NCBI RefSeq assembly: GCF_018977255.1
Contig: NW_024704742.1
Span: 133,426,001 to 133,490,000, forward strand
Origin: Callorhinchus milii
Taxonomy: Eukaryota
Direction: 5' to 3'
Length of the DNA stretch: 64,000 nucleotides
The notes beneath the pieces are model-generated. The model was not told where the DNA came from. It worked only from the letters and a program-made list of their open reading frames with translations, and did no database searches. The stretch's first letter is position 1, and each line of letters begins with the position of its first letter. A program made the position numbers and the translations under genes. Positions 22,001 to 54,900 of this stretch are shown piece by piece.

Positions 22001-23766
22001 ACACTAGTCAAAAAAAGAAGAATTTTTCTCTAATTCTGGAGAGTATTTGTCATAGGTTGGCAAGAACCAAGGTCTGGGATTCCCAGAGTGTGCGTTGGGG
22101 TAACTGCTGGAGACTAACTGGGTAAAACCGAAAATTGAGAGCACTGCCTGGCAGGCTGTCCTGCTGCTTGTCCAGCTGGGACTACAGTACCCATTATGAC
22201 TTTGGCTTCCAGGGTTAACAGGAGCTGAGTGGGAAGAATCCCTGTCTCCAATCTGGGCTGTGCTGTCAATTGCAGTGCCCTGGAATATGGGGGACCTGCC
22301 TGGCTGAGGAACTGGACCTCCGAGACTGCCCAGAGTAGATTATTGGCATTCTGTAGCCAAGCACATCATCCTGGAGCTCAGCTACAAGGAACCCCATTTT
22401 CCTCCCCTAAGGGTCATGAGTTGGTCAACTCACAAGCGCACACTTGGGGGAGGAGAGAAGGGTAGGATGATGCCGCTAAGTGTCCATTCAGTGTATTACG
22501 TCAAGTTTTGTCAGAATTTAGCTTTGTTAGGGAAGTGTTAAGTAACTGTGCTAATTAAGGAACGCTGGAAATTTCCCCCTGTAGATACATAAAAATGTTC
22601 AGCGCCGACCGAGGTCAATTTCCACAATTGGTTGGGTAATGCTTCCTTCAGGAGCATGTAAAGCTTGAAGTGCTTTACATGATGTATTGGAAAGTGGCGT
22701 GACTGATTTGTAGGCGAACGTTATGAAGTGTACTGTCTCTTGATTCAACAGGAAACCACGGAAACAATGGGAACAATGGTCTACCGGGGCACGAGGGGAT
22801 AAAGGGCGACAAGGGCGATAAGGGGCACATAGGTCTACGAGGAGAACGGGGGACACAGGGTATTCAAGGAGAGAAGGGGCAAGCTGGGATTCCAACAGAA
22901 TTCAAGGTATAAGAGATTCTCATCTGATTTCACAATGAATGTGTTGCTTTTTGTCACAGAATATCAAAAAATATAATGGTCGTCCTTCATATCCGAAGAT
23001 GGCTGTTCACACAATGTGATCACCTGGGTGTGTGAATTTGTTTAAAGGGAAGCTGCTCCCCACACAGCAACCACACTGTTAGGTAGTAACAGTGTAACCT
23101 GGTGTCAAGGAATATGTGAGACCAGACCACTTGCTAACTGCAATGGCAGAAACCATTACTACGTAAAGCGATCCCCAATCGACTAACAACTGGGTTCCTA
23201 CTTACTGCTAGTTAAACAGAGGCTTGTGGAGTAACAAAATTACGTAGGGTTTCACTCCGCAAAGAGTATTAGAGCATCAGAGGAAGCTCTTCTGATATGC
23301 TAGGTCCACACTCCTTCAAACACAGCAATGCCATTAGACATCTCTGTTTGGCAATTCATTCATTATTGTAAATAGACTGATACACAGTGTGTGCTGTGTA
23401 CACACAGGGCCAGAGGTTTGAATTCTCTGCACAATTGCACATCAGTTATCTCTGCACAAGAATGTATCCTCACCAGCAGCGGGAAGCTTGCCAGACAGTA
23501 CTCTCAATAGCAAGCTACTGCAGTTTTAACTAGTTAAACTCCAGCTGTATCCCAATACACACTCTGGGCTCCTCAAGTCTTTAGTTTCTCCCAAACTGCG
23601 CCCAATACATTTTTTCCCCCAGTGCCCTGGTCAACAATTTATTTTATTTATCAAATAATTGTTGATTGACTTTGTGGCTGTTTGTGTGATATTATTGTGC
23701 TGCCGTGTTCCCACACAAAATGCACGGTCAATACACTTCACAGTGAATCGAGTGAAGCACATTGAA

Positions 23767-23798
<32 letters not shown>

Positions 23799-26700
23799 AA
23801 AAATACAAAGTTAATCCACTTCGCAATATATTCTATGAAGCACTTTCAGGCATCTCACTTTCAGCGTCTTGAAACGTCCTCCCGATGTGAAAGGCTCTAT
23901 ACAAATGTAATCTTGATATTGTCTCAATGACGTGATAAGGATTATTAATTATTATTCTCCTGACATAACAGTCCCTTCAAACTCTGGCATCGCTCTACCT
24001 CTCCAACCTGCTTCTTCCCCAACCCACGACCCACTGCCTCTGCTTGACTGGCTCCAGCTTCCAGCTTGTCCCCCGTGCTCTCCTTTCGACCAACGGTGGC
24101 CGTACTTTCTGCCAATATGTCCCTAAACTATGGAAAACACTCTGGAATGCTACCTTGGGTGAGGGCTGCCATATTGTTGTTGTTGTTGAAAGACATCATA
24201 TATAATGATTATTATTAGTAAATGAGCTCTAGCCAATTTCCGTTGGAGTTGAAGCCTCATTTCCAATCTTAGGACCATATTCTGGAGTTCCATGTTAGAG
24301 GTCATTGAATGGCTTTCAAAGTGTCAGGCCGCGATTACTGGATTTAATCCCTTTTTCTTTTGTTTATGATCTTCTTTGTGAGTTCCGCAGGTGGCTTTCA
24401 TGGCTTCCATGGCAACTCATTTCACCAACCAAAACAGTGGCATCATTTTCAGCAGTGTAGAGACCAATGTTGGAAACCATTTTGACGTGATGACAGGGAG
24501 GTTCACTGTTCCTGTACCAGGTAGGCTGGCAATATTACAGCTTGTGACACCACACACAGAGCCCAGTCCCCTAGCTAAAGTTGCTAAAACTGCGAAGCTC
24601 TTTGAGAAGTCCTCCCGACGTGAACTGTAAAGATAAACCGTAAAGATGATTGAAGACATTATTACAGATGATTAATAATTAATTATTATAATTGGTTGGT
24701 GTAATTAATAATTAATAAACCTAATTAATTAAACAATCAATTTATTAATTAATCAATGTATTTATTGTCAACTTCTGTTATTCATTTGTTTGCTTGTTTC
24801 TATTTTGTTTATTAATTAAGCATGTTCACTTCTATTGGATGTCGCTGGCTATCCTCAGACCTTGTAACTTTCTCTGAATTAGAAGGCTTGAAGGCTTCTG
24901 TTCCTACACCCCTCACCTCTGGAGCTCCCTCCCTTCATCACAGTCTTGCCTCCTCTCTTTCTATCTTTAAGTCCTGTTTTCCAATCCTGCTGGTTAAACT
25001 TCAGCAGTTACTCCTAACGCACACTCTGGGGTCCTCAAGCCTTGGCTCATCCCAACCTGGGCCTAATACTCTCCAGAGAGTGAGTGTGCATCTCATTGCA
25101 CTTTAAAGTAAATCCTGAGAAGAGCCTTGAGCTGACTTGCAGTCATGATAAAACGTTTGATCAGCTAACACTGTTCTGCTGCACCTGCCTGGGATTTTAA
25201 CCTCTTCAGCCAATCCTATGATCACCCCTACCTCCCCTTTCTCTCTTGATCGGCATCCAGTCCTGCCAGTGTACAATCCTCCAAGACAAAGTCTTGTGAG
25301 AAGGCGCTATATAAATGAAAGTTGTTGATGATCAAATGCAAGGATTCACCGAACGGATCGACTTCTAGATCCTCACACTCGTCTTCAAAGCCCTTCATGC
25401 CCTGGTTTCTCCTTACCTCTCCGACCTGCTTACTCCCCAATCCACAACCTGCTGCCTCGGCTCGACTGGCTCCGGCCTCCTACTTGCCCTTCGTGCCTTC
25501 TGTTCCACCATCAGCGACTACACATTTAGCCACTACGGCCCAAAACCCTGGAACACTCTTCCTCTATCCCTCCTCCTTGCCCCCTCCTTCCTCTTCCTCT
25601 TCAACCGAGCCTACGGTCACTCCCCCTTTCCCCCCCCAGCTGGAAATCATGCTCCACCACTGTTAAGTGCTCTGGGACACCACCTTGCGCCATGTAAATG
25701 CAAGTTGTTGTTGTTGATGATCAAATGGAAGGATTATTAAGAAATGTGTTAAGAAATAGCGCAATATAACAATAACTTGTGTTTTGCCAAGAATACTTTC
25801 CAAAAATAGATGAATTAAGGGCTCGTTGGATTCTACTGTGAATTTAGTTCATACTAAGTGAAACTGTGCGCAGGAGGGTGACATTTTCATTTCTGGATCA
25901 TTTAACTTTATGTCTAGTTGTCTTTTAACAATGATATATTTTGAACATTTAGAAGACTACGTTGAATTATAACTGGCTATAAAAACTAAATTAATTTATG
26001 TTGAAATCCTGGCTATGGGGCGTTAGTTGAAATGATGAACTAATAATTAAATCTCATAAAAACCCATAAATTGCAGCAAATTTATTTTAGGTAAATCGCA
26101 GACATGTGTAAAAAATATGAAGTCTATTAAACTGAAGTAGAATCTGGAGTGATGCCAGGGAGATAGAGGAAGTGGGAAAATATAAAATAACGTGATTTAT
26201 TTTGGGGTATTCGACACATACAGAAACCGATCACCATCCTTAAGTGTATCCAAAGAAAACTGAGAATGCCATGCATCCCACCTAAACAGGACATTTTTCA
26301 TAATTATAGCCTTAACATTGACAGCTTAAAATTTAAGCTGGTGCCCAATTGTGGAAAATTCTTAATTTTATTTCAATTTCAAAGCCAATATTTTTACTGG
26401 ACTATAAAGACTTATTTTTGGTCAGCCAGGTGTCAGAGACATGTGGAAACCATTCCCATACTTAAGAGTATCCAAACCAAATTGAGAGTTCCCTGAAGCC
26501 ACGCACTCTGCTTACCTAATTATGGAGAGTATTAGGCATAGGCTGGAGAGAGGCAAAGCTTAGAGATTCTGAGATATGCATTGTGCAAAACTTCTGGAGT
26601 CTAACCAGCTAAAGCAGCATAACTTGGCATTGAGAATACTTTCTGACAAGCTTCCAAATGCACGTGAAAAGTTTCCTTTGCTCTGGTCTCTGTATCCGCC

Positions 26701-29700
26701 TTTACAGAGCAGAAATCTATCAGGTTTTAGCCTGGAAGACCATTTTGTTTCCAAATGTAAGATACAATACAATACAAAATTACATTTGCATAATGCCTTT
26801 CATGTTGGGAGGATGTTCCAAGGCACTGGACAGTCAGGGATTTGGACCCAAGCTGGGGGACAGGATTGGGGAGGGTGAAGGGCAGGGAAATAGAAAGGTG
26901 GCTGAAGGCTTGGTCAAAGAGGAGGGTTTTGAGATGCGCCTTGAATGAGCCAAGGGAGATCCCCCAGACACCAGGGTAATTCATAAAAGTTTCTTTCTTA
27001 GAACTTCACAAAATCTGCTTCCAAATTAAGGCTGGATTTAAGACAATCTTAATTTTTTACACATATTCCCTTAAAAGCTAAGACTGAGTGGGATTTGGAG
27101 CTTGATGTGGATGCATCTGAATGAATCCAATCAATAATAATAATAATAATCCTTGCATTTGACATGGTATTGACTGTGTATATTATGAACCAAATGCAGG
27201 AAAATTGGCTGGTATTTCCTCATAGCCTGACACTTACTTTGCTTAAGTTCATCAGCCAAAGAAAGTACGTGAATTGATCAGAAGGTTAGGCTGATGGTCG
27301 CATAGGGAGGCTAAATTGGCCCTGATCTTCCCAGGGGTAAGGGAGAGGAAAATCGGCCAGGGTTCCTGCTTCTGATTTCTGATCTCTCCACAACATCCTC
27401 TGCTGGAGGCAGCCAGATCAGGAGTTGTCAAGCTGGGCTGTGACCTATCTACACTTGAGTAACCTGTCGACACTCACTGCCAAGTCTCATACATGAACAA
27501 CGGCCACTTGGGCTTACGCCTATAGAACTGTATCCCAGAGAGAGGAAGCCAGAACATGAGCAGAGAAGGAGAAAAATTAGGAAGATTGAAAAAATAATAA
27601 GTGGGCGCGTAAAATGGCAAAGAGATCAGGAGGCTCATTGTAATAATAATACAACAAGTTGCATTTATATACAGCCTTCCACATCAGGAGGATGTCCCAA
27701 AATGCTGGAAGAGTTTGAGAAGTTTGCACCCGAGCTTGAGAGTTGGAATCAAGAGGAGTGGAGGGCAAAGGGGGTGGAGGTAGAAGGATTATTGGAGACA
27801 AAGTCAAAGAGGAAGGTCTTGAAATCGGCCTTCAAGGAGCCAAGGGAGGGTCGGTGACAAGGCAGAGGGCCTCCTGGTTGAAATTCCAGAGGATGGCAGC
27901 AGAAAGCGATGGTGGAATGGGCGGAGCGGGAACATGGAGCAGGCCAGAGCATGCCGATTGGAGGGAGTGGGCCAGTTCGTAATGGTATGGTAATCATCGC
28001 TGTGTTTGCTTTTTTATTCATTCAGGAGTCTATTTCTTTATTTTCAATATGATGAAGCACGAAGATGTGGCGGATACGTCCGTTTTCCTCATGCACAATG
28101 GCAATGCCGTCATAACTGTGTACAGGTATGAAAAGGCTACATCAAAAATAATCAGAATAATAATCCTTGCTTTTGATATAGTGCCTTATCATGCTGTTTG
28201 AGGTGTCTCAAAGTGCTTCACAGAATATATTGTAAACTGGAGTGTCTGTATTTGGACTGTGGAGTCCTGTAGCTCAGTAGGTAGAGCACTCGCCTAGCAA
28301 ATGAGAGGACCTGTGTTTGATTCCTGGGTGAAATATAGGCAAATTTCCTTACTCCACACCCCTCTGTTTACTTAGCAGTAAATAGGAACGCAGTTGTTAT
28401 TAGATTGTCGGATCGCTTTTCTGGGGCTAATAATCCCTTCAAAAAATAAATAAATAATAATTTGGTCACTCAATCCACGACTGTTTGTGGGACATTGCTA
28501 TGTGCAATTGGCTGCTGAGTTTCGGTCACAAATATACAGTCAATTCACTTTACAGTATGTTCTGTGAAGCACTTTTGAGATGTCTCGAAGACATGATATA
28601 TCAAGTGCAATGATTATTGTCAATATTATTATCTTGTGGAAGAAACAGAAATGGAGTAAGAATTGCGATGTTCATTGTTTAATGCTGGCGTAAACCCTTC
28701 CCCACAAGGTGGCAGCAATTCTAGACCAATGGTTCTCAAACCAATTTTTTTNGGTGGCCTCAATGGGCAGAGTGTCCGCAATGCGACTTTTCGTAATCTG
28801 CTACACCTCCTCCTTTCTTGAAACCAGCCAGCGTGCGGAGGGAGACAGAGAGGAAGGGAGAGACAGAGACCACGCATTGCAGAAACACTGCTCTAGATGA
28901 TTGGTTTTGTACCTTTTCGTTCCCAGCCCACATCATTGTTAAAAAATCTGATCTGAGGCAAACAATTTTTACCTTGTAAATGTTGGACCCTTCACAGAGC
29001 TGTGTGATTGCCCGAGGTGCCGCACTATGGCTGAGATGTTAAACCGAGATCCCGTCTGCCTGTTCAGATGGCTATTAAAGATTCCATCCTCGCTATTTGA
29101 AAATAGAAGGGCGTTTCTCCCAGTGTCCTGGCCAACTATCCTCCCTCGGATAAAAATTCTGTGAGGCGCTTTGAGATGTCCTGCCAAATTGCAAGACTGT
29201 GTATTAAATGCAAGGATTATTCTAATTAGTATTAATGATATTAATAACTGATTAGTATTAATGATATTAATAACTGATAACTGATGTGATAAGGAGCTGT
29301 ATCAAATGCAAGGATTATTATTTTTACAGTAAAGCCTCTGAAGCTGTTTGAGATATACTGCTGAAGAGCAAGACCATGTATCAAATGCATGCACTATTAT
29401 TAATAACTAGCTTAAACTTATCTCACTCCGTGACAATTTGTGGGAAACTGCTGTGCCCAACTGGCTGTCGTGTTTCACCCACAAAATACAGTCAATCCAC
29501 TTTAAAGTATGAAGCGCTTTGAGACGGCTCAACAATACGATAATAATAATCATAATAATCCTTGCATTTGATATAGCGCCTTATCAAGTCTTCAAGACAC
29601 GTCTCAAAGCGCTTCTCAGAATATACCGTAAAGTGTATATTTTGTGGGCGAAACAAGGCGCCAAATGAAATTCAAGGATTATCATTATATTGTTATGATT

Positions 29701-29958
29701 AAATTGGTACATGTGACGGGACATTCTGGTGGTGCAGCTTCCTGCGTAGCATTTGCGACCCGCCAAGATGATTAATGTTCTTTGCTATTCCCTTTCAGCT
29801 CTGAGGCGAAAGGCAAACATGACAGCTCAGGGAACAGTGGAGTGCTTAAGCTTTCCACAGGTGACGAAGTGTGGCTGAGGATGGGAAATGGAGCTCTCTA
29901 CGGGGACCATCAACGTTTCTGTACATTCTCTGGGTTCCTACTCTTCGAGCTCAACTAA
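9987..29958 (+). CDS. C1QTNF3: Complement C1q/TNF-related protein 3 (CTRP3), spliced CDS join(9987..10070,19936..20047,22752..22906,24391..24520,28026..28125,29799..29958), 246 aa
   Basis: Manual splicing gives 84+112+155+130+100+160=741 nt in one frame with GT..AG introns. The product has CTRP3-diagnostic motifs [15 protein letters not shown], Cxx[57 protein letters not shown] and GDHQRF, closely matching human CTRP3 as I recall it. Confidence 0.96.
11530..12700 (+). mobile_element. Two L2 3' fragments (11530-12020 and 12250-12700)
   Basis: [14 protein letters not shown] / FKALHGLAP / APTLWNS motifs, each fragment ending in gacgtgaaaggcg..aaatgtaattttgttgttg. Confidence 0.85.
15353..15673 (+). 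mobile_element. Young tRNA-Ala-derived SINE, short form
   Basis: A box TAGCTCAGTGG, B box GAGTTCAATCC, TGC anticodon loop, Deu-like core GTGGGACATTGCTGTGCGCAATTGGCTGCC, L2-like 3' stem-loop, (TTA)n tail; possible aactt TSD. Confidence 0.9.
16700..17640 (+). mobile_element. CR1-clade LINE 3' fragment
   Basis: [49 protein letters not shown]-type tail. Other CR1 pieces at 1-115, 2180-2480, 32400-32690, 33985-34190, 38200-38450 (-). Confidence 0.9.
18071..18394 (-). mobile_element. Young tRNA-Ala-derived SINE, short form
   Basis: Near-identical reverse complement of the 15353 copy. Confidence 0.9.
18400..19190 (-). mobile_element. L2 LINE 3' fragment
   Basis: Remnant [19 protein letters not shown]; pyrimidine-rich 3' UTR. 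Confidence 0.8.
19936..20047 (+). CDS. C1QTNF3: C1QTNF3 coding exon 2: [37 protein letters not shown](G)
   Basis: T-rich tract plus cacag acceptor; CxxCC motif and start of the collagen repeat; donor G|gtaact, phase 1. Confidence 0.92.
20300..21300 (-). mobile_element. Young 5'-truncated L2 LINE nested in an older + strand L2 fragment (~20150-21600)
   Basis: 230-aa ORF with [39 protein letters not shown]; (CAA)n tail at 20301-20321; host reads ...ctgctta | gcttactcccc... Confidence 0.9.
20395..20530. repeat. G-rich minisatellite, about 3 copies of ~47 bp, in the L2 3' UTR
   Basis: ggggggaaatggtcagggtgaggggagggaagggaggg is repeated three times. Confidence 0.9.
22752..22906 (+). CDS. C1QTNF3: C1QTNF3 coding exon 3 (collagen domain): (G)[51 protein letters not shown]
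   Basis: Acceptor caacag; uninterrupted Gly-X-Y; donor AAG|gtataa, phase 0. Confidence 0.96.
24391..24520 (+). CDS. C1QTNF3: C1QTNF3 coding exon 4 (C1q domain start): [43 protein letters not shown](G)
   Basis: Acceptor ccgcag; corresponds to the start of ORF 24391..24630; donor G|gtaggc, phase 1. Confidence 0.97.
24668..24820. repeat. AT-rich low-complexity (TTAA/ATT) tract in intron 4
   Basis: attaataattaattattata...ctaattaattaaac. Confidence 0.8.
28026..28125 (+). CDS. C1QTNF3: C1QTNF3 coding exon 5: (G)[32 protein letters not shown](S)
   Basis: Acceptor cattcag after a T-tract; C1q motif GVYFF; donor AG|gtatga, phase 2. Confidence 0.96.
28259..28630 (+). mobile_element. tRNA-Ala-derived SINE, long form (other copies ~40260-40625 +, ~55694-56045 +, ~5510-5790 -, ~60018-60335 +)
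   Basis: Same head and tail as the short form, plus an internal ctctgtttacctagcagtaagtaggaac...gatcgctttcc segment. Confidence 0.85.
28727..28890. mobile_element. Putative non-autonomous hAT (Charlie-like) DNA transposon in intron 5
   Basis: Imperfect TIRs caatggttctcaaa / ttgcagaaacactg with 8-bp flanks ttctagac and ctctagat, which fit the NTCTAGAN target preference. Confidence 0.6.
29799..29958 (+). CDS. C1QTNF3: C1QTNF3 last coding exon: [52 protein letters not shown]
   Basis: Acceptor ccctttcag; C1q C-terminal motifs LxLxxGDEVWL and FSGFLL; TAA at 29956-29958. Confidence 0.96.
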
Positions 29959-30260: not shown

Positions 30261-30489
30261 GGTTTCGCTCACAAAATACACAGTCAATCTACTTTACAAT
30301 ATATCCTGTGAAGCACTTTGAGATGTCTCAATGATGTGATAAGGCGCTATATCAAAAGCAAGGTTCATTATTATCATTATTATACACACAGATGCACTGT
30401 TTGATTTTCCTGCACCAAGGTTCTTTTGTCTTGACCAGTGTGGAATTTATGGCCAGACAAGAACACTATAGCTTTGGCAACAACAACTT

Positions 30490-31096
30490 ACATTTACAGA
30501 GCACCTTTCATCATGTAGGGTAATGTCTCGGAACACTTGGAGAGCTTGCAATGATCGAAAAATTATCTGTGTCAGACCTCTGTGAGGAAGCTTGGTGTGA
30601 CTCTTATCTTTCTTGCCTTCAATTTTTCTCCTGCCCATTGCATAAAGATCCTAGTTACACAGTGCAGTGTCTCAAATCCAGTTTTCTTATTGAGAGAGAA
30701 AAAAATGGCAAAATACTGCAGATGCCGGAAATCTGAAATAAATACAGAAATGGCTGGGAACACAGCAGGTCAGCCACTATCTATGGAGAGAGGAAAATGA
30801 TAAAGGATCATCAAGCTGAAAGGTTAATTCACTTTCCTCTCTCCAGAGATGCTGCCTGTGCTGCTGTGCATTCCCTTCCCAGTGTTTTTTACATTTACTG
30901 AGCACCCTTCATCACATAGGGTAATGCCTCGGAACACTTGGAGAGCTTGCAATGATCGAAAAATTATATGTGTCAGACCTCTGTGAGGAAGCTTGGTGTG
31001 ACTCTCATCTCTCATCTTTCTTGCCTTCAACTTTTGTCCTGCCCATTGCATAAAGATCCTAGTTACACAGTGCAGTGTTTTTTTTCTTATTGAGAG
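30490..31096. repeat. ~206-bp direct duplication (30490-30696, 30891-31096) flanking an inverted pair of Penelope terminal fragments (30697-30890)
   Basis: Directly visible repeated text ggaacacttggagagcttgcaatgatcgaaaaatta...ctagttacacagtgcagtgt; the insert has arms tggagagaggaaa / tttcctctctcca. Confidence 0.9.
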
Positions 31097-32338: not shown

Positions 32339-34255
32339 ATAATATATAAGACACAATTCATGCTTCATTGCTTATGGCTTGTGTGATTATTTTCACTGGA
32401 ACAGAGGAAGTTCAGGAAAGACATGATAGATGTCTTCATAACAATGAGGGGTTTTGATAGAATCAACAGAGAGAAATTATTTCCATTCAACGGTGAGATA
32501 ATAACTGGGGGGGGGAAGGGGGGGGGAGTGATAATTTAAAATAGTTTGCAAAAGCGTAGTGGAAGGTTACGAGAATTTGTTTTTTTAACACAAAATTGTT
32601 GGATGTGGAATGTTCTGCTCGGTGCATTTGGTTGAGACAGGATCAAATTATTTATATTTTAAGAGGAAACTAGTTAGATATCTAAAAATAAATAATTGAC
32701 GTCAAAATTTCACATTTGAGAGCACATTTCATTTCCTCGTCTATAAGCTCAAAATCCCCAATGTAGGGCCTGAACCCAAAACCTTTTAACTAAGAGGCCA
32801 GAGTGCTACCAAGTGAGCCAGGTTCACAGTAACAGTGAGGCTGAAATCAATCACATGAGCTGACATGATCCAAACTGCAGGGATTTGTCGGAGGGGGAGG
32901 TGTGGTGGGGGATGTGTAGTTTCAATGTAAAAATGCACGAGGAGCTCATGGGGGGTAGGGCATTGTGCTTTCCGATGATAGGGACAAGGTGCAATTGTAA
33001 TCGGAAGTGCAGTGAGAAAATTATACCTATTGTACATTACACAACAGCAACAACTTGCATTTATATAGCACCCTTCACACCGGACAGCGTCTCAGAGCGT
33101 TTTCCACACAGATTGATACAGCATGGAAACACCCCACTTGCTCTGAATAGTCCATTCTGTTGTTTATACTCCACATGAGCCCCCACTTCTCCTATTCTCC
33201 TCTCCTGTACCCCACTATTCCCTTCTCCCTTGTGTACGCATCGTTTTTTTCTAAAATACATTGATTTTTTTNGCTTCAAACACAGCTTCCAGCAGTGAGT
33301 TCTGCACTCTCACCATCTTTTGTATCAATAATTGCCTCCTAAACTCCCTATCAGATCTCCCACTCGCTATTTTATATTTATGTCATGTCCCTCTAGTTAT
33401 GAACTCAACAACAAGTGGATACTGCCTGTCTACGTTATCCCTTTTGAGTCCTTTCCTAGTAGTCTTGAACAAGCCAAGTAACATCAAGAACTAATTAAAA
33501 AAAGCACTTTGCAACTTTCGAAGCTAGTGCGAAAGATTGAAGCTATTCATTGCTGCTGATAGTTGTGCAATATCTCTTGTCGTTAAAGATGATTTGGCAA
33601 CAAGAATATTAAGGAAACCTTTTACAGTGTGTTAATCGCAGTCTATCACTTGATTAATCTGTAAAACTGCTGGTTATCTGGCTCCTTTGCTCCACTGTTC
33701 GATCTATCTTGCTTTCATGGGCTTTTTTATGCTTACTTTTCATTTTTCAGATCCCTGCTCCCCCTCTCCCTCCCCCTCCGCACGCTTCATTAACCTCTAA
33801 TGGCCATCATCAATTAGAGCGCACAGGCTGAATGATATTCCTTGACTTTGATGCAGCACCTAGGATGCTGGAGAGGCTCAAAGCACTTCACTATGTACTT
33901 TGTAGACGAACATAGCAGTTAATATGCCCAGGGCAGCTCCCCACCAACAGCCGTGAAGTGAATAACCAATTTAATTTGAGGATCGTTCACCAGATTTATA
34001 CCAGGGAATGTGGGACTTCAATTATATGGAGAGATAAGAGAGACTGGGATTATTACACTTAAAGCAGGTAAGGCTGAGGGGAAATTTAATAGAAGCATTC
34101 AAAATAATGAGGGGTTTTGAGAGAATAGATAGGGAGAAATTGTTTTCTCTGGCAGGGGGATCGGTAATCAGAGGACACAGACTTAAGATAAATCTTCCCC
34201 ATTTTGAAATTACATGCCTCTCCGAGTCAGATATATAAGCACGTGATCTCTTCAT

Positions 34256-34414
34256 GAGACCCCATCGTGAGCAGCGAGTGTAGTAAACTACATTGGTGGT
34301 AGTACACGCAAATCGTGGCCTCACTTGAAATCTGTGTTTAGGGCCCTGACTCTGGTATGGGAGGAGGTGAAAGGACAGGCATTGTGTCTCCTGCGCTGGC
34401 ATGGGAAGGTGCCG
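34256..34414 (-). mobile_element. Inverted upstream part of the same Penelope-like ORF
   Basis: The minus strand reads GTFPCQRRRHNACPFTSS../GPKHRFQVRPRFACTTTNVVYYTRCSRWGL, i.e. the Cys-rich linker and first half of the GIY-YIG motif. Confidence 0.8.
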
Positions 34415-34529
34415 GCCTTTTATTAGTCCTGTTGACCTATCATCAGTCATTAAAATCAGCCTGATCTGTACTGTTTCTGACAGATTTGCACTTGTCAGTA
34501 TGGGGAGAGTGGGGAGGTGCCGTAGGTTT

Positions 34530-35400
34530 CCTCTACAGTGGGGAGACCAAATGCAGATTCAGTGACCTATTTGTCGAACGTCTCCGTTCATGCACGCAAG
34601 CTCAACCCTGAGCTTCCGGTTTCTTGCCATTTCAACTCTCCCTCCCACTCACATTCTGCCCTTTCCATCCACGGTCTCCTTCGCTGTTCAAATAAGCCAC
34701 AGCGCAAGCTCGAGGAACATCACCTGATTTATCTGCCTTCCTCACTCCCTTCGTCTCGCTCCCTCCCTTCCCATTTTCAGGTCTCTGCTGAAGACCTTTC
34801 TTTTCGACTGCGCCTTTGGTCACCTTCCTCCTCCTCCCCCCGGCTCGGCCCCGGGATCTGTTACTGTAAAGCCCTCTGAGACGCCGTCTGGAGTGGAGGG
34901 CGCTACAAAAATACAAGTTTTTGTTGTTGTTGTTGTAGGGACCTTACAACCCACTGTCCTCAACATTGATTTCAACAATTTCAGACCAAAACAGCTCACT
35001 TTCCTCGTCCTGCTCTTCTGTGGCTATTACCACACCATCTTGGTCCCAGACACACCTTTTCTCTCCTTGATTTGCCTATTTTGTTGTAAGTTCTTCCCCT
35101 GACCCCACCTTTTTGTTCCGCAGTATTAACACCTCTATTTTCCTGCTTTGTTACAATCCCCCTTTTGTTTTGCATCACTAACACCACTTTAACCCATCAT
35201 CCCCTGTGCTCTACCCCATTTTCTCCTTTGTCTTCCTTGCCCTGCCTCTCGCCTCTCTGTCGGCCCTTAAAAGCCACTCCCTCCCAACATGTCCCGGTTC
35301 TGACGAAGGGTCGTGGACCCGAAACCTTGACTCACTTTCCTTTCTCTATAGATGCTGCCTGACCTGCTGAGTGTTCCCGGCGACTTCTGTTTTTGTTTTC
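34530..35400 (+). mobile_element. Penelope-like element 3' part: GIY-YIG endonuclease remnant plus terminal repeat, interrupted by an L2 tail at ~34735-34935
   Basis: Translates to LYSGETK.., PVSCHFNSPSHSH..HGLLRC..RKLEEHHLIY and, after the L2 insert, GTLQPTVLNIDFNNFR; terminus ctgacgaagggtc..gacccgaaac..gatgctgcctgacctgctgag. Confidence 0.85.
35296..35333 (+). ncRNA. Minimal type I hammerhead ribozyme-like motif in a Penelope terminus (probably mutated at helix III)
   Basis: GGTT-CTGACGA-A-GGGTC-GTG-GACCC-GAAAC-CTT-GACT: both conserved core boxes, a perfect 5-bp helix II and a short helix I. Confidence 0.6.
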
Positions 35401-35472
35401 TAATAAAAGGCTGTCAGGTTCCACAACAAAAGCAATTACTATTGTTCGAGAACAAATGAGAGACCTGGGTTT

Positions 35473-35796
35473 GTGGAGTCCTGTAGCTCAGTGGTTAGAG
35501 CACTCACTTTGCAAGCGAGAGACCCGAGTTCAATTCCAGGCAGAGGGCGAAACCTTGGGCAAGTTTCCTTACTCCACACAGAGCCTAATAATAATCCCTC
35601 CAAAAAACTAAAAAACAATAATAAATTGGTCATTTTCAATCTACGACTGTTTGTGGGACATTGCTGTGCGCAATTGGCTGCCGCATTCGCCCACAAATAT
35701 ACAGTCAATTCACTTCACAGTGTGTTCTGTGAAGCGCTTTGGGACGTCCTCCTGACGTGAAAAGCGCTATATCAAATGCAAGGATTATTATTATTA
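35473..35796 (+). mobile_element. Young tRNA-Ala-derived SINE, short form, inserted into an older long-form copy
   Basis: Near-identical to the 15353 copy; the flanks gagagacctgggttt and attcctggcagggcaaa rejoin into an older SINE head. Confidence 0.9.
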
Positions 35797-38700
35797 ATAT
35801 TCCTGGCAGGGCAAAGTGTTGGGCAAATTTCCTAACTCTGTTTCCATAGCAGTAAGTAGGTTGTTAGTCGATTGGTGGATCGCTTTGCTGGGGATAATAA
35901 TTCCTTCAAAAATAATAATAATACTAAATTACTTCAATCCATGACTATTTGTGGCACACTGCTGTGCAGAATTGGCTGCTGCGTTTCACCCACAAAGCAT
36001 ACAGTGAATTCACTTTCCAGTATATTCTGTGAAGCGCTTTGAGACATCTCGAAGACATGAAAAGGCGATTTATCAAATGTAAGGATTATTATTATTAAGT
36101 AATGCCTAAGTTACTCGTGTCCTAGCTGTCCTGGCTCAGTTGGTAACATGCTTGTCTCTGAATCAAATGTTTTTGGGTTCAAGCTCAACACTCAGACTTG
36201 GAACTCATATAGTTCTGACACTGCTGCAGCAGTGATAAAGCTTTGCTGCTTTGTCAACTTGCCTTTTGGATGAGACATTAAACTGAGTCCAGTCTGCCTG
36301 ATCAGGTGGGTGTTAAAGATTACTTGGCACTATGTGAAAAGAGAAGAGAGTTTCACTTAGCGTCCTGGCCAACAATCCACCAAATAAAATTCTTCCCTCA
36401 TTGTTTGTGGGACACAGCTGTGCGCAAATTGGTTGGCAGATAGGCCCACAAAATATACAGTCACGTCACTTTGCAGTATATTCTGTGAAACACTTTGAGA
36501 CATCTCGACTGCATGATGAGCGCTTTATTAAAAGCAAGGATTATTATATTATTATGTAGGGAGAAGAAGGGGCCTAGTGTAATTGCCCAATTACTGCTTA
36601 TTGCTTTAACACCCAGAATCAATTAAAAGAGGGAAGAAACTTAAAGTTAGGAGAAAAACAAGTTGGGACAGAGATACGAGAAAGTGGCTTCTTGCAGAGA
36701 ACGATAAGACAAACAGTCGCCTCCACCTTACAGTATGTCATAGGAAGTGCTTTAGAACGTCCTCCTGACATGAAATCACACAGTCACTACACTTTACAGT
36801 ATATTCTGTGAAGCGCTTTGAGACGTCTTGACAATGTGATAAGGCGCTATAACAAATGTAAGGATTATTATTATGAAAGGTGCTATACCAAGTGTAAAGA
36901 TTATTATTATTGTTATTATAGTAAAAATGTGAAGTCCATGGTCCCAGAAAGCCATAGGTAGGAAATCTGCTGAGGGCTTTAAAAGAAAGATGGGTAGATA
37001 TCATACCAGAGGGAGAAAAAATCCATAGGGAGAAACTTTTACGTAGCATTTAGGTGCAACCACAATTTGGCAAATGTTTGAATTGCCTCTTAACTCTGAA
37101 GACCTGAAGGCAGTTTCCTGAAAGAAGTGTTCTTATTTTCCATTTAAAAATATGCCAAAAAAAAATAATGTTACAACTTACGCCAGAAAAAAAACATGGA
37201 ATCATCTTGCTTGGATCAATCAAATTGACCAGCCTTGGAACCTAATGGCAAGGGTTATGTAGAGGAAGAACTATTTTGGACAATAGCACAAATACACACC
37301 GTGAGTATTAAAGCTGTAGAAACCAGAGTCAGGGACCAATAACTTTGCCATTGATTTTTCTCAAAAGTATTCCACTCAGCTATTTCCAAATTTATGCTCT
37401 GCTAGAAATGTCTCAAGGCACCTTCAACTGCAGAAGGTACCTATTAGATTTCCTTTGCACCATGAAACATATCATTGATCCATAAGGAAACCTCTGGCCA
37501 GCCAAAGGCCACAGGTCGATTTTACTTTTAATTGGGATTACAGGAAACCTGAACTGTCTTCACAAAACAACATTGGTTTAAATATGCATGGGGTAATTTA
37601 ATGACAGATACCAGGAAATTTTGCTTTTCCCAGAGGGCATTTAATGACTGGAATAGGTTACATAATACATGGTTGAGGTCAGGTCACTGAGACTCATTGA
37701 AAAAACAGCTTGATGCTGTGCTGGGAGGATGATAGGATTCATATTCTCATTAGGATGAGATCAGAACGGTCCTTTGATTCTAATATTCACAGGATGACTT
37801 TCCACAAGATCACAAGAATGCTTTGGATGAATTAGAATGATTTAATCTCAAACGTCCAAAATGCCAAACCTACTGCCTTCCAATTATAGAATTTAGCCCG
37901 TTCAACAACAACAACAACAACAACTTGAATTTATACAACGCCTTCCACGCCGGACGGCGTCTCAGAGCTGAGTTGAGTCAGGGGGAGGGGGAGAAAGGTG
38001 ACCAAAGGAGCTGTCGATAAGAAAGGACTTCAGCCGAGACCTGAAAATAGGAAGAGAGGGGGCGAGGCGAAGGGCGTGAGGGAGTTCCAGAACCTCGGGG
38101 AGTAGTGGCTGAAGGCACGGCCCCCGAAGGTGGAGTGGAGGATTTAGGGGACAAGGAGGAGGCCAGACCCAGTGGAGCAAAGGCAACGGGCACTATTTAA
38201 CGCGTCTACGCTGTCCTCTATCTTCCTGCCTGGCGACCTCTTCTCACTGCTCATGAACCTCTGTGTAAAAGAATACTTCCTGGTGTCTGTCCTAAAATTG
38301 CCCTTTGCAACCCTGAACCTGTAGTGTCTTCTTGTCCTGTTTGCTATATCTGAAAGTACAGTTCTGGGTTTAATTTCTCCATTATCCAAAATGAGGCGCC
38401 ATAAATATAAGATAGCCACTAGCAGATCTAATAGAGGGTTTGAGAGGAACTTCACATTGCGCTGAGAGTATTGAGAATGATAATAATCCTTACATCTGAT
38501 ATAATAATAATAATATTCCTTGCACTTGATATAATACCTTATCACGTAGTTGAGAGTCTCAAAGCGTTTGATAGGATATACTGTAAAGTGTAGTGACTGT
38601 GTATTTTGTGGGCGAAACGCAGCAGATAATTTCACACAAGAATGTCCCACAAACAGTCGTGGATTGAGTGATCATTATGATTATTATTATATTTTGAAGG

Positions 38701-40625: not shown

Positions 40626-40628
40626 TTT

Positions 40629-40700
40629 ATTAAGCAATGTTACTGAGTGTTTTGAAGTCAATGGTTCAGAACTACAAAACACTCAGTAACATTGCTTAAT
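40629..40700. repeat. Perfect 26-bp inverted repeat with 20-nt spacer
   Basis: attaagcaatgttactgagtgttttg (40629-40654) is the exact reverse complement of caaaacactcagtaacattgcttaat (40675-40700). Confidence 0.95.
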
Positions 40701-41409
40701 GGTTAATGAACCAGAATGGTTCCCAATCAATAGATGTCAGTCTGGCTCAGTTAGCAGCACTCTCACCTCACTTCTGAGTCAGAAGGTTGTGGATTCAAGC
40801 TCCCCGTTGGGACTGAACTCCCACAGTCCAGGCTGAAACTGCAATTCAGTGCTGGGAGTCATTGATGCTGTCCTTTGGATGGGATGTGAAACCAAAGTCC
40901 CATCTGGCACTGTTCAAAAATAGAAGGGAGTTTCTTCCAGTGACCTGGTCACCAATCTCATAGATAAAATCGACCATTCACTGCATAGCTGTTTGTGATA
41001 CGTTGCTGAGTGCTAATGACTGCCGCGTTCACCTGCAAAATACAAAGACACTGACACTTTGAGCTGTCTTGATGTGAAAGGTGCGACATCAAATGCAAGG
41101 ATTATTATTCTTTTATCGAATCACACATTCCACCACGGAAATATATTACACAATAAAAATCATTTTGGTTCCTGCTGAGTGGACACTCCAAATCAAATTC
41201 CATATTCTATGTAGCAGTCAGCTATCTTTGCATTGATCCACAATACGAGCTTCTTTGCTTGAAAGAGCTCGATAATTACATTTAGATTTATTTCGGAACA
41301 TATCAGACTGTTATCCTGCCAGAAGTCTGAACAAAGAAGTTAGGAATGAAAAATGTAGAGATTTGTGTCAGGGTGGAAATCATTGCATTTTAGACTTATT
41401 CATATGTTA

Positions 41410-43489: not shown

Positions 43490-46472
43490 TACTCCCTACT
43501 CCCGCCCCCCTCTATGTCTCTTCTCCCACCCCCTTCTATCCGCTACTCCCGCTCTGTCCTTCTCTCCCACTGCCCTCCCTGCCTTCTCTCTCCTCCTCGA
43601 TCCCATCACCACTTCCCTCTGCTCCAGCCTGGGCATCCTCCGCTGGGCCCATCGTGGCTCCCGGCACTGGCTGTCACAGAGCAGCAACCCCACGTGTCCA
43701 ACCATTCACTCCCTCCACTCAAACCGCCTCCTTAAGGCAAACCTAATTCCCCCTTTCCTCATAAGTACCCTTCCCAATTCTACACTCACACCACTCTCCA
43801 CAACCATCTCTCCTGTACAACCCAAAATTCTTTCCGCACCACTCTCTCCTCCCTCCCCTCCCTCCAGCAAACCCACCCACATTTCCCTCCAAAATGTCCT
43901 TTCCCTCCCCAACGAAACCCTCAACATCCACGATCTCATCCTGGTGACATTCTTGGGCTCACCGAAACCTGGCTCTCCCCAATGACCCCGTTCCCCTAGT
44001 GGAAGCCTCCCCTCCAGGCTACACCTTCCACCACACCCCCCGTCCAAACCAACATGGCGGCAGGGTGGCCTTCATTTCCAAAGCTTCCCTTGGTCTCACC
44101 CCCTACTCCTCTGTCTGCTTCCCCTCCTTTGAGCACCTCACCCTCTTCCACCCCTCTCTCCCAATGAAAATCCGCCTTGTCTACTGCGCTGCCTAAGCCC
44201 CCCCGGCTCATTCCACACAGACATCTCTACTCTCCTCTCTTCTCTGTCCCTCTGCTCATAATGGGCGATTTCAACCTCCACCTAAACTCCCCTTGCACTA
44301 CTTCTGCAGGTTTCACTGCCCTCCTCTCCTCCCTAAACCTTACCCTTCATATAAATTCACCTACCCACAACTGTGGTCATGCCCTTGAACTCGTTATCAC
44401 CCGCGGCCTTGACATTTCGGAACTCAGCATAGTTGACAAGGCATCTCGGACCTCTTTTTCATCTCCTTCTCCTCTCACATCCCTCTCTCCTCCACCAAGC
44501 CCTCAACTATCCTCTACCACCCTTGGAAAAGGCTACCCCCTGAGACCCTCATAAAGGCTCTTTCATCATCAAACATCCTGTCCCTCTGGCTTTCCACCCG
44601 CGGAGATCCTAAAACAGCCATCCAGCTGCTCCATGATCGCCTCTCCTCCACCTTCAACTCCCTCATCCCCCTGAAATCCAGGACCATCTCCAAACCCCCA
44701 GTACAACAACTATCTCCGCCGGCAAAAAAAACAAACCCGTCTACTTGAGCACAGATGGCGGAAAACTGGCCTGACAGTTCACCTCCAACTGTGGCTCGAG
44801 CATCTCCACAGCTACCGCCGTTCTTTGACATGCGCAAAAGTGGCCTTCTACTTCAACATCATCTTGGAGGCTAAACACAACCCCAAAATCCTTTTGTCCA
44901 TCACCCACTACCTCCTCCGTGCCCCCCCTCAGGCCTCCTCAATCTTCATATCAAATGTCAAGTGCGAGGAGGTCATGGACTTCTTTTCATCTAAAATACT
45001 TAACATCCGCCAGGCAGCCTCATCCACCTGCACCTTGTCACCCACCACCACACCCTCTCTGTCCCCCTTACCCTCCTCATCATCTGCTCCTACCGCCAGC
45101 CCCATCCTACATTCCTTCATCGCCATCTCTCCCCACTCCCTCTCACCCACCATCACCTCCATGAAATCCACCACCTGCTGCCTCGACCTCCTCCCCACCA
45201 ACTTACTGGTCACCCAGTTCCCCCTCCTCTGCCCACTACTGGTTCACATCATCAACCAGTCCCTGCCTCCCTCAAAACTGCTGTCATCATGCCCCTCCTG
45301 AAAAAAACCCTCCCTAGATCCCTCAAACCCCAGCCACTACCGCCCTATTTCTAACCTGCCCTTCCTCTTAAAAGTTCTAGAACTCGTTCTTGCCAACCAA
45401 CTTCACACACACATTTCCTCCCATTCCCTCTTCGAACCACTCCAGTCTGGTTTCCGCCCTGCCTACAGTACAGAGACTGCACTTGTGAAAGTCACAAACA
45501 ACATCCTCTCTCTCTCTGTGACCAAGGCTCCCTCTGCCTTCTTGTCCTCCTGGAACTCTCCACCGCGTTCGACACAGTCGATCACGCCATCCTCCTCCAC
45601 CACCTTTCCTCCGACATCCACCTCAGTGGGACCGCGCTCGCCTGGTTCGAGTCCTACCAAAAGAACGTTGACAAGACGGAAGCCATACTCTTTGGCTCTC
45701 ATCAACGTCTAAAATCTCACGGCTCTCACCTCCTCCACCTAGCCGACCTCCCACTTACACTCTCTGAACCCATATGCAACCTAGGCACCAGGTTCGACCC
45801 CCAATTATCCTTCCTCCCCCACATCCGGTCCCTCACCAGCACCGCTTTCTTCCACTTACGACGCATCGCCCGTCTCTGCCAATACCTCTCCGCTGAAACC
45901 CTGGTCCATGTTTTTGTCACTTCTCAGCTGGACTACTCCAATGCCCTCCTTGCCGCCCTCGCCTCCACCACCATCCATAAAATCCAAATCATTCAAAACT
46001 CTGCCGCCCGCATTCTCACCCGCACCGAACTCTGCTCCCCGATCACCCCAGTCCCTGCCAGACTGCACTGGCTGCCTATCCGAGAGAGGATCAACTTCAA
46101 GATCCTCACCCTTGTTTTCAAGTCCCTGCACTCCTCTGTACCCCCTACCTCTCTGACCTCCTCTCTCCTCAAAAGTACCCATTGCCTTCGTTCCTCCGGG
46201 TCTGGCCTCCTCCTCATCCCCCGAGTCCTCCATTCCACCCTCGGTGGCCGTGCCTTCAGCCACTATGCCCCGAGGCTCTGGAACTCCCTTCCTCACTCCC
46301 TTTGTCTCGCTCCCTCCCTTCCTATTTTCAGGTCTCTGCTGAAGACCTTTTTTTCAACCGCGCCTTTGGTCAGCTTCCATCCCCTCCCCCTGGATGGTCT
46401 CGGGATCCTGTGAAGCGCTCTGAGATGCAGTCCGGCGTGGAGGGTGCTGTATAAATCCAAGTTGTTGTTGTT
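43490..46472 (+). mobile_element. Degenerate near-full-length L2-clade LINE (APE endonuclease plus partial RT)
   Basis: Frameshifted motifs LQNV, GLTETW, MGDFNLH, SPTHNCGHAL, YRPISNLPFL, QSGFR, AFDTVDH, LHWLP; 3' stem-loop and (TTG)n tail. The central RT part (YADD) appears deleted near 45660-45720. Confidence 0.9.
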
Positions 46473-48692
46473 GTAAATAGTGCCATGGGGTGTTCAGTGT
46501 GCACCCAAACAGGCAGACGGGATCTCGGTTTAACATCTCATCCAAAGGACCGCACCTCGAACAATGCAGCCCATTACCAGATCTGCATTGGAGTGTCATC
46601 TTAGACGAATTGACTCCAAGCCCGATTTGGGGATTGAACCAACAACCTTCTATCTCAGAGGCGAGAGTGCTACCACTGAGCCAGGCTGACATGCATTATA
46701 GCGTAGCAAGGGACCATGACAAGTCACACCAGTGAAAAAACAGAATTTTGAAGTGTTTAATCATATGGCAAGAGGAATATACAAGGGCTAAAATGCCCAC
46801 TGTGACTGTTTTAGCTCCTGTACATTCTCTCATCTGATGACCTGGCTCAGTCTGGCTCAGTTAGTAGCACCCTTGCCTCCGAATCAGAAAGTGGTGGGTT
46901 CAAGTACCATGTTAGGCTGACACTTAGCCTGTTCCTGAACACAACAATAATCTCCAATGATTTGCTTTTATATAGCGCCCTTCACGTAGGGAGGATAACC
47001 CAAGGTGCTGTCCTGGCTTGGGCTCGAGGTGGGAGTGGGAGCCAAATGGTTTGAGGAGGGGAAGGATGACCAGTGCATCAGATAATAGATGCTGTCAAAA
47101 TCCAAAGCACCACCTTAATAGCTACTGAAAGCACGTTGATATTTCTCGGTGGTTTCCGGTCTCACTAGATTCACCTTTCTTGTAGATAGACACATCAGTT
47201 ATACTCTGGAACACTGACGGTGTCAATCAAACAGAATCCCATCGTCCAGCCTTAGCCGGCCAGCTCCTGGGCAGCTTGATGGTTCCTGGCACTGATCTCT
47301 AAGACCTAAGATCCTTAACGGCCACCTGAACAGCTTTAATGCCTCATCCAAAGGCCGGGACCTATGGCAACACAGTGCTCTTCCAGCACCGAACTGAGTG
47401 TCAGCCTAGACTACAACAACAACTTGCGTTATTCATCAACAACAACAACTTCATGCAGGGTAGGGTCCCAGAGCGCTTGACAGTGGCAGAGCACGACGCT
47501 GAGCCGGGGGGAGTGGGAGGTGACCGTAGGCACGGACGAATAGGAAGGTCTTAAGGTACGATTTGAAGATGGGCAAAGAAGGGGCAAGGCAGAGGGATAG
47601 AGGAAGAGTGTTCCAGTGTTTTGGGGTGTAGCAGCTGAAAGCACAACCCTAGACTATTGGTTCAACCCCCACTCCCCAACACGCGGGGGTCTGCATTTTG
47701 CTTTAATTGTGGTATTCTGCTTTCTCAGGGTATCCACCCAGATGCTTGAGCAACTGCCTGCTGTGAATTATAGCTGGCAGCACACCGTGATTGAATGCGC
47801 CGTAACTTACAGGAAAGGATTCTGCTCACATCACCAGGTTGTAAAATGGATGCATTGACTGTGTAAATGTGTGAAACATAGCTCTCAGAACCCAGGATAA
47901 AACAAAAACGAGTCTTATTATGTGAGCGCTGATCCTTGTGTAAATCGGCCATTTCAGGCCGAGGGCATGAGCAATAATCTGCTTCTCTTTCAATCTTTGC
48001 TCACGTACTCCTTCCTGGATTTGCTTCCACTGAAATTCCAATTAAATCTGTTTTCTGGAACATGGGCTGTAACTAAGCACAAGCTGTTATTATGTCAAGG
48101 CACTATTCGCTATTTTAGTGGTAATCTCTTCGGTCCAGTGTCAGGATTAATTAAAGTTTACGAGTCAACAGCATTCAAGCAGAGCGAGGTGAACAATAAT
48201 AAATAAAATCTTTGCACATCATACAGCGCCTTTAATTTGATAAAATTGCAGATTAAATTTGCCATTCACTTCAAGGTTGTTTGTGGAACTCTGCTGTGTG
48301 CAATTTGCCTGCCACACTTCACCCTCAAACATACTGTGAAGCGCTTTGAGATAAATGTCCTCCTGACTTCAAAAGCGCTATATCAAATGTTTAATACATT
48401 TTTCTGATGCACCAAGTGATCATTTGAGTTTATATTAGAGAATTAATGAAATTGTTTCAGTTTACTATTGTAAAAATGAAAACAAGAGCACAATAGTTTG
48501 ATAATAATTGTTATTTTAAGCGCTCTGAGAGGCTACCCTGCATAGAGGGCGCTATATAAGTGCAAGTTGTTGTTATTGTTGTACTTGATGCCAAGTTCAG
48601 TTCTGGGCTCCACACTTCAGGAAGGATGTCAAGAGGGTACAAAGGAGATTTACCAGGATGGTCCCAGGAATGAGGGACTTCAGTTATTAGGA

Positions 48693-50030: not shown

Positions 50031-50752
50031 ATAGCCGTGAAGTTTCATTCTTTCCATATCACATTTGCAAACCATCATATATAAATCTATTAGACTGTGC
50101 GAAAACAAAAATAAAACTAGACAGAATTACAATTGAATTACGTTAACCATTTAGACTATCCAGGATCTTTTGTGTGCTACTTGCACACCACGTAGTAATT
50201 AGATGTGTAAAATACACAATCAATCCAATTCACAGTATATTCTGTGAAGCACTTTGAGACGTCTCAATGAAGTGATAAGACGCTATATCAAATGGAAGTA
50301 TTATTTTTATCCTCAAAGCACATCATTAGAAGGATGCAGATCAATTCACTGCCAATCTTGCCTTTGAAGCAATGATGTCCCAAGATGAAAACTCACTCCA
50401 ACTTGGAACCAAAGTTACTTTGATTCCTGCCTCTACCTTGTTTACAATGATCCTCCATGTCTTTTAGTTCAAAGAAAGGAAGAACTTGCAATTAAATCTG
50501 AGCAATAATGTGATGAGGTAATTTTGGGGAGGTTGCATCATTTTCTTGGTTTTGTTATTGATTACAATACTAATGAACTATTTGCCTCAACGAGCAGCAT
50601 CTGTACTGAATAATCTTTGTAACAAAATCTTGCCACGAACCTCATTATTTCAACCAGACTGGCGTGCGTTAAGTAATTCTGTTTGATCTGTCAAAGGTTT
50701 TAATGCTATACATTTTGGCGTGAATCAAACCATTTGCAAACTGCAAACAGTT

Positions 50753-51082
50753 GTGGAGTCCTGTAGCTCAGTGGTTAGAAGACTCGCTTTGCAAGCGAGA
50801 GACCTGAGTTCAATCCCAGGCAGAGGGCGAAACCTTGGGCAAGTTTCCTTACTCCATACGCCTAATAATAATAATAATCCCTCCAAAACCAAAAACAATA
50901 ATAAATTGGTAATTTTCAATCTACGACTGTTTGTGGGACATTGCTGTGCGCAATTGGCTGTCGCGTTCGCCCGCAAATATACAGTCAATTCACTTTACAG
51001 TGTGTTCTGTGAAGCTTTTTGGGACGTTCTCCCGACGTGAAAAGCGCTATATCAAATGCAAGGATTATTATTATTATTATTA
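50753..51082 (+). mobile_element. Young tRNA-Ala-derived SINE, short form
   Basis: Near-identical to the 15353 and 35473 copies. Confidence 0.9.
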
Positions 51083-54772: not shown

Positions 54773-54900
54773 GAGTCAACGTTTCGGGTCCATGACCCTG
54801 ACGAAGAGTCATGGACCCGAAATGTTGACTCACTTTCCTTTCTCCATAGATGCTGCCTGACCTGCTGAGTTTTCCCAGCTCTCTCTGTTTTGTTTGTAGT
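54773..54900 (+). mobile_element. Penelope terminal fragment with a fold-back duplication and hammerhead-like core
   Basis: 24-bp inverted arms at 54773-54796 and 54808-54831, followed by gatgctgcctgacctgctgag as at 35350. Confidence 0.75.

Follow-up and report, generated by a model that had tools for sequence, protein, structure and literature searches.

A probable decayed minimal type I hammerhead carried by the 3' pseudo-LTR of a Penelope-like element copy, now dead, from a cartilaginous-fish genome

A minimal hammerhead motif is genuinely present at 35296-35332 of the window (by which the whole stretch of DNA analysed, 64 kb long, is meant). With a probability of about 0.9, it is considered here as a decayed minimal type I hammerhead; the copy that carries it in its 3' pseudo-LTR would be a Penelope-like retroelement of Neptune-like type, dead and truncated at its 5' end, in a cartilaginous-fish genome. 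Judged from its sequence, the motif would both work like the minimal hammerheads of Penelope-like elements and descend from them. In active members of the family, the 37-nt motif would combine a 4-bp helix I and a 5-bp helix II with no helix III of its own, and when two such motifs follow each other in one tandem transcript, their ACGU palindromes would pair, giving a helix III common to both, and the RNA would be cut after GUU; as in the published relatives, this cleavage would be weak and probably assisted by a protein. The copy in the window would have landed with a 12-bp target duplication, then have received a LINE insertion, undergone a small inversion and drifted by ~5% from its family, so as to end with CUU for GUU, a non-palindromic ACCU and no intact partner within the window.

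Structure and statistical support of the motif

The minimal type I hammerhead motif (35296..35332, plus strand) was delimited from the sequence and with a structured descriptor, and its positions are named according to the standard hammerhead numbering scheme. Helix I (4 bp) is formed by GGTT at 35296-35299 and GACT at 35329-35332, and two of its four pairs are G.U in this copy, a number that the family A at 35296 would bring down to one. The CUGACGA box (CTGACGA, 35300-35306) is followed by an unpaired extra A (35307) and by helix II (GGGTC at 35308-35312 with GACCC at 35316-35320), which has five Watson-Crick pairs and a 3-nt loop, and in which G35308-C35320 is the G10.1-C11.1 pair. Next come the GAAA box (G12-A14 at 35321-35323 and A15.1 at 35324), C15.2 (35325), position 16.2 (35326, which is C in this copy and G in the family), U16.1 (35327) and U17 (H17, 35328), the would-be cut being at 35328/35329. 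All of these features are on the plus strand, and the core boxes CUGANGA, GAAA and UH (35300-35306, 35321-35324 and 35327-35328) are in type I order. The boxes, the extra A, helix II, the GAAAC and the short helix I that the original prediction had described were all located at 35296-35332; the end that it gave, 35333, falls outside the motif, which stops at 35332.

The structured descriptor (helix II of at least 4 bp, NUH core, helix I of at least 3 bp) had one match only in the 64-kb window, namely the motif at 35296, and was matched by 4 of 300 dinucleotide shuffles in its relaxed form and by 0 of 300 when strict geometry was imposed. The bare two-box pattern CTGANGA-N8-30-GAAA is at background and has no significance (7 matches for a shuffle mean of 5.5, with 28 of 100 shuffles reaching 7). 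The comparison with Rfam by Infernal, which had been proposed as a check of the prediction, fails on this motif: none of the 17 matches with E<=5 is a hammerhead. The probability of a hammerhead-like fold of the monomer was 0.024, with a fold z-score of -0.55, i.e. a stability no better than that of shuffles; such a poor monomer fold is expected for a motif without a helix III of its own.

Family consensus and decay of the copy

Contigs of four coded public runs (X1, X6, X7 and X8, with 9,832, 3,295, 17,264 and 18,433 pieces, respectively, X6 possibly being an RNA run) were aligned to positions 35120-35430 at 80% likeness, and family base shares were computed as depth-weighted contig shares, which are different from copy counts. 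At 35326, G represents 79.7, 85.5, 74.1 and 73.7% of the depth in X1, X6, X7 and X8, A represents 13-23%, which matches the expected CpG decay, and C or T together represent 1.2-3.3%. Given this majority of G, the family core is GAAACGUU, and the palindromic 15.2-16.2 is held by the family in all four runs; the 74-86% of depth that carry G thus confirm both the core GAAACGTT assigned to the family and the change from G to C in this copy, as originally proposed. At 35296 the family has A in 98-99% of the depth, so that the family helix I is AGUU/GACU and opens with an A-U pair.

The copy of the window is without the 15.2-16.2 palindrome, having ACCU in place of ACGU. A helix III made of two ACCU copies would contain two C.C mismatches, and a heterodimer with ACGU one. 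The same G>C change turns the cleavage triplet from GUU to CUU, and the consulted portion of PMC8879150 ranks CUU with the lowest NUH triplets, one class below GUU. On the basis of the ACCU mismatches and of this triplet rank, the copy is predicted to be most likely inactive, in line with the probable impairment that had been anticipated; since CUGANGA, GAAA, NUH and both helices are intact, a residual activity in trans is possible.

In X1, the copy differs from the majority at 15 or more of 279 positions overall and at 2 of 37 in the motif, that is 5.4% in each case (among the 40 of 81 variant rows listed, with up to six more differing sites beyond these), which suggests that the motif has been kept no better than its flanks. 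Changes of the CpG type were found in the family at the catalytic G12 (G>A, 7.8-15.7%), at the free N7 (C>T, 8.8-15.3%) and at C11.1 (10.6-15.3%). As G12 changes as often as the free N7, the bulk of the family copies appear to decay neutrally, without selection on catalysis, as dead copies do. A covariation score calculated on five pieces of the window, which had little power, did not exceed that of shuffles (0.078 against 0.077 for shuffled pieces, with 326 of 500 shuffles as high).

The host element and its insertion

A GIY-YIG remnant had been predicted about 300 bp upstream of the motif; the remnant found there ends at 34985, and the motif starts 311 nt later. Its largest plus-strand piece (34525..34732), which starts at the YIG-like motif, continues across the C-terminal half and contains a single frameshift, was obtained by tblastn with P0002, P0004 and P0012 (E 1e-12 to 1e-14, 48-64% identity), these homologues being Leucoraja and Heptranchias proteins. 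The last 16 codons of the endonuclease domain are at 34938..34985 on the same strand (tblastn with P0028, 69% over 16 aa, E 0.006). The 5' part, consisting of the Cys-rich linker and the first half of the GIY-YIG domain, is inverted at 34253..34416 (minus strand; tblastn with P0004, P0012 and P0018, and translation) and joins the plus-strand endonuclease piece without gap in protein coordinates. The remnant aligns in pieces along the whole of a C-terminal GIY-YIG domain with CCHH, two of the four CCHH-like positions being changed in this copy by our own reading of the alignment, and the CX2-5CxxC linker before the endonuclease is present with one C>H change (C-x4-[C>H]-xxC here, C-x4-CxxC in the homologues). 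The endonuclease alignment breaks at 34732 and restarts at 34938, on either side of the 3' end of a LINE, tailed by (TTG)n (34733..34936, plus strand), a later insertion that matches copies of the window at 1668-1862, 46284-46474 and 37905-38084 with 76-87% identity, and that is presumably L2-like.

Searches by phmmer with the 55-aa frame at 34565-34729 led to 28 proteins. Six of the seven that were looked up belong to Leucoraja (2), Rhincodon, Heptranchias, Hypanus and Rhinoraja, the seventh being an oyster repeat protein that was rejected as unrelated, and P0005, P0006, P0016 and P0021 were set aside as apparently unrelated repeat proteins (Pfam, 13 of the 28 phmmer proteins examined). The shark and ray sources of the six proteins indicate a cartilaginous fish as the likely host. 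P0004 and P0012 have Pfam GIY-YIG matches under the curated cut-off, and seven long relatives of the P0004 domain (46-51% identity) include proteins with both RT and GIY-YIG. Pfam on the raw endonuclease remnant gave 0 families in four proteins, and a direct word search that used the 55-aa remnant led to 0 of six candidates; in the Atlas, unnamed eukaryote clusters came up at 0.91-0.92, together with a GIY-YIG cluster at 0.88, considered as a lead only, and a protein-led locus search gave 0 matches in viral contigs and two weak 31% matches in prokaryote bins. As the RT has been lost from this truncated copy, the Neptune label is drawn solely from the linker, and a Cys-rich linker is common to Neptune and Nematis in the accessible sections of PMC8557442.

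The shark and ray protein models P0002, P0003, P0004, P0007, P0012 and P0028 end in the endonuclease piece of the element, as exemplified by models of a neuromedin-U receptor and of a receptor-transporting protein. The endonuclease ends of these models are probably gene-model artefacts or exonised repeats.

The 3' pseudo-LTR (34986..35399, plus strand) comprises the 3' UTR, the hammerhead and a short end, and linkage between the motif and the upstream pseudo-LTR is seen in contigs of other family copies. The motif had been proposed to lie at the terminus of a Penelope-like element; the context is indeed Penelope-like, and the position is inside the 3' pseudo-LTR, ~65 nt from its end and from the target duplication. 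The family extends past 35398 by a shared stretch of ~30 nt, with loose ends there that agree in all four runs, and other family ends are found at 35394, 35397 and 35399 with lower agreement. By analogy, this extension fits an optional tail missing from the present copy, such a tail being described for elements of this kind in the parts consulted of PMC8557442 and PMC11167929.

The right copy of the target-site duplication (12 bp) is at 35400..35411 on the plus strand, and the left copy (12 bp, now inverted) is at 34415..34426 on the minus strand, where it adjoins the 5' edge of the minus-strand piece. Positions 35400-35411 are the exact reverse complement of 34426-34415. In either orientation the 12-mer has a single occurrence in the window, and ~0.001 chance matches would be expected for a 12-bp duplication in the ranges searched, assuming equal base frequencies. 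We infer an insertion of ~840 nt, 5'-truncated and flanked by a 12-bp target duplication, into which the LINE later jumped; the segment ~34253-34520 (the 5' piece, the left duplication and ~90 bp of flank) would have been flipped after or during the insertion.

The pseudo-LTR also carries a donor at 35086-35091 and, at 35333-35354, a branch-like CTCAC, a pyrimidine tract, an AG and an ATG. Taken together, the donor at 35086 and an acceptor at 35351 would place the hammerhead in a 5' intron, a reading at motif level only, which is weakened by A35350>G.

Related pieces and other sequences of the window

The three related termini that had been announced in the 64 kb were all found, at 35296 (site A), 54773-54895 (site B) and ~30700-30890 (site C). 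They amount to five pieces with zero complete intact ribozymes, and all three plus-strand cores are changed at the central CG. Site A is a single plus-strand unit whose nearest relatives, 4.5 kb and 19.5 kb off, are both broken. Site B (54773..54895, both strands) is a fold-back stub: its minus piece (54799-54773, 27 nt) has helix II and GAAACGTT at 54785-54778 without CUGANGA, and its plus copy starts at 54798, with a G>A mismatch in helix II and the core GAAATGTT. The whole folds as a single hairpin (-45.7 kcal/mol) in which the core is buried, and the intact minus-strand core formerly reported at 54777-54784 is in reality a half-motif at 54785-54778 within this fold-back. Site C (~30700..30890, both strands) is an older head-to-head pair: its minus copy bears the long tail of the family, and the core of its plus copy is destroyed (ATGATAA, GAAAGGTT). 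No exact target duplication of at least 6 bp was found at sites B and C in the ranges searched.

Site C is flanked by a direct duplication of ~210 bp (30488-30696 / 30888-31096, 88% by BLAST, with mostly indels at the ends), situated 0.5-1.1 kb past the stop of a collagen/C1q gene. Two readings are possible, a target duplication of unusual length or a tandem duplication that arose locally.

Beyond the window, a 21-mer of the tail was matched at 3 loci in prokaryote genomes, at 7 in metagenomes and at 0 in viral sequences, and a pattern combining core and tail was matched at 15 genome loci and 0 viral ones; all 25 are pattern-only matches that were judged to be due to chance.

The plus-strand exons of the collagen/C1q gene, at ~22727-22909, 24382-24520, 28025-28125 and 29800-29958, match the Pfam families Collagen (E 5.6e-11) and C1q (E 1.7e-9, 1.6e-4 and 7e-11); the gene has an AATAAA at 29966, and we take it to be C1QTNF3-like. 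Pfam searches of 150 of the 166 non-repeat frames of at least 55 aa found only pieces of LINE RT and this gene, besides four weak matches below the cut-off. Among the repeats, a tRNA-derived SINE with an (ATT)n tail is very abundant (35476-35801, 18319-18390, 50751-51081, 56719-57028, 59144-59475 and others), and several of its heads exceed the Rfam tRNA gathering score. Long degenerate LINE remnants, presumably L2-like, occupy 43500-46474, 20300-21500 and 48680-49670, with an RT match at 49194-49550; a further RT piece lies at 16666-16926. A near-perfect hairpin of ~80 nt (40626-40706), which lies beside a SINE tail and has sub-threshold miRNA matches, is probably a small inverted-repeat element.

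A possible start of the element RNA at helix I

The family ribozyme may form the first 37 nt of the element RNA, with transcription starting from the A that opens helix I, a proposal that we regard as tentative and rather unlikely. Reverse transcription primed internally on monomer RNA would then give the abundant hammerhead-plus-tail stubs and fold-backs directly. Initiators follow the pattern YYANWYY, and the family CCAGTTC at the start of helix I presumably fits it. The commonest 5' loose end among the 24 of 1132 rows listed is 35297 in all four runs (178, 70, 290 and 403 contigs), with heterogeneous, AT-rich flanks, bearing in mind that the copy's own mismatch at 35296 pulls nearby loose ends to 35297, and that subfamilies with a different upstream pseudo-LTR yield the same pile-up of ends. 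Among the 15 of 100 joints listed, those of inversions concentrate at 35297-35305, and the loose-end rows listed include none at the cut site 35329. Contig depth climbs gradually across the motif, and contigs cannot reveal RNA starts. For Penelope itself, an internal promoter and a 5' intron are reported in the portion available of PMC2377424. If the proposal is true, the stubs would map the 5' end of the RNA and would speak against cleavage making the end of the template.

Alternative interpretations and activity

A resemblance to hammerheads arising by chance is extremely improbable. The lack of an Rfam hammerhead match, the bare pattern at background and a fold stability no better than that of shuffles would be compatible with it, but the strict descriptor was matched by none of 300 shuffles, the motif is placed where such motifs have been described, in a pseudo-LTR behind a GIY-YIG domain, and the family majority has the palindrome and the A-U pair that are missing in this copy. 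Very unlikely too is the idea that the copy is a weak working ribozyme that cuts read-through RNA of the upstream collagen/C1q gene, for instance as a termination aid, with a second copy of the family as its partner in trans. The motif is in sense to this C1q/TNF-family gene (stop at 29956-29958), its core nucleotides are complete with both helices present, and the AGGU of site C is complementary to its ACCU; however, it stands 5.3 kb past the stop and behind eight AATAAA/ATTAAA hexamers (the first at 29966), the core of site C is lost, the motif is as divergent as the sequence around it, and even intact relatives cleave poorly in the sections consulted of PMC4209133. Nothing in the data analysed points to a co-option or transcription of the motif.

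That the family motif is non-catalytic even in active elements, and persists as a structural, promoter or splicing element or as a passenger, is conceivable and yet doubtful; such a reading is compatible with this copy being dead. In the text available of PMC11167929, cleavage by the anole element needs the element protein and is dispensable for insertion in vitro, where hammerhead mutants insert unaffected, and no anole RNA-seq reads end at the cut site, while Naiad elements proliferate without a hammerhead according to the part seen of PMC8557442. The 5' loose ends at 35297, 35298 and 35336, with none at 35329 (among the 24 of 1132 rows listed), point in the same direction, as do the sole GTRAG donor of the pseudo-LTR (GTAAGT at 35086) and the pyrimidine tract, AG and ATG that stand behind the motif at 35335-35354. 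Against it, the full core, both helices and the palindromic ACGU are retained in the family consensus, G replaces the acceptor A at 35350 in 31-32% of the depth in X7 and X8, and GT..AG joints are absent among the 15 of 100 joints listed, the donor at 35086 being outside the aligned 35120-35430.

A decayed minimal hammerhead of a dead Penelope-like copy is the reading preferred here. For such hammerheads, the available parts of PMC4209133 report monomers to be inactive and dimers weak, with ~4,000-9,000 copies in coelacanth and Xenopus, and one of nine Xenopus retrozyme dimers was found to cleave in the excerpts of bioRxiv 10.64898/2026.07.22.740005.

Comparison with known elements

With the minimal hammerheads of Penelope-like elements, as presented in the consulted part of PMC4209133, the motif shares the type I topology and the 4-bp helix I, the single unpaired nucleotide ahead of helix II and the G10.1-C11.1 pair, the absence of loop 3 and, at the family level, the palindromic 15.2-16.2; lone truncated copies predominate in both cases, with opposite-strand pairs nearby. 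It differs by its helix II, which has 5 bp and a 3-nt loop whereas that of Schistosoma has 7-8 bp, and by the loss of the palindrome in this copy. The hosts named in that portion of the article are bony fish, coelacanth, Xenopus and reptiles, and cartilaginous fish are unnamed there.

The Neptune and Nematis elements with an endonuclease (EN+; PMC8557442 and PMC3846280, both in part) have in common with the present element the C-terminal GIY-YIG, the CX2-5CxxC linker, a strong 5' truncation and head-to-head copies with a one-sided tail (here at sites B and C). The target duplication is of similar size, 12 bp here and 8-10 bp in the rotifer elements described in the part seen of PMC3846280. In contrast to these elements, the RT is gone in this copy, one linker Cys and parts of the CCHH are mutated, and the inversion at site A takes in the target duplication and flank, unlike the usual inverted pseudo-LTR. 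The anole Poseidon element PAc, in the sections available of PMC11167929, likewise has a pseudo-LTR hammerhead, two alternative 3' ends and an AT-rich target, but belongs to the Penelope/Poseidon clade without the Cys linker; its ORF starts at stem II, whereas the first ATG past the motif is here at 35352, with a putative use.

Non-LTR retrozymes (PMC7229834 and bioRxiv 10.64898/2026.07.22.740005, in the parts consulted) also possess a type I hammerhead related to Penelope pseudo-LTRs. They are built of two or more tandem units, mostly with canonical loop-loop hammerheads, whereas the minimal motif of site A stands alone and is joined to endonuclease sequence. The identity of a non-LTR retrozyme was rejected for site A, a lone plus-strand unit at which a tandem array is absent. 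Retrozymes are reported in one chondrichthyan genome in the portion seen of the same bioRxiv preprint.

Significance for the family

As early as 2014, vertebrate Penelope-like elements were described as carrying minimal hammerheads, which number in the thousands in a genome (PMC4209133, consulted in part). A cartilaginous-fish family of Penelope minimal hammerheads was not found named in the literature covered, which was chiefly open-access and included parts of PMC7229834 and PMC6765202. The very abundant ribozyme-bearing repeat that had been suggested for this genome is upheld as regards its high abundance, which refers mostly to decayed copies. The single locus matters little, being one decayed copy among very many. 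At the family level, the association between minimal hammerheads and Penelope pseudo-LTRs is extended to a cartilaginous-fish family, and the high copy number of this family allows insertion ends to be mapped against the ribozyme at whole-genome scale.
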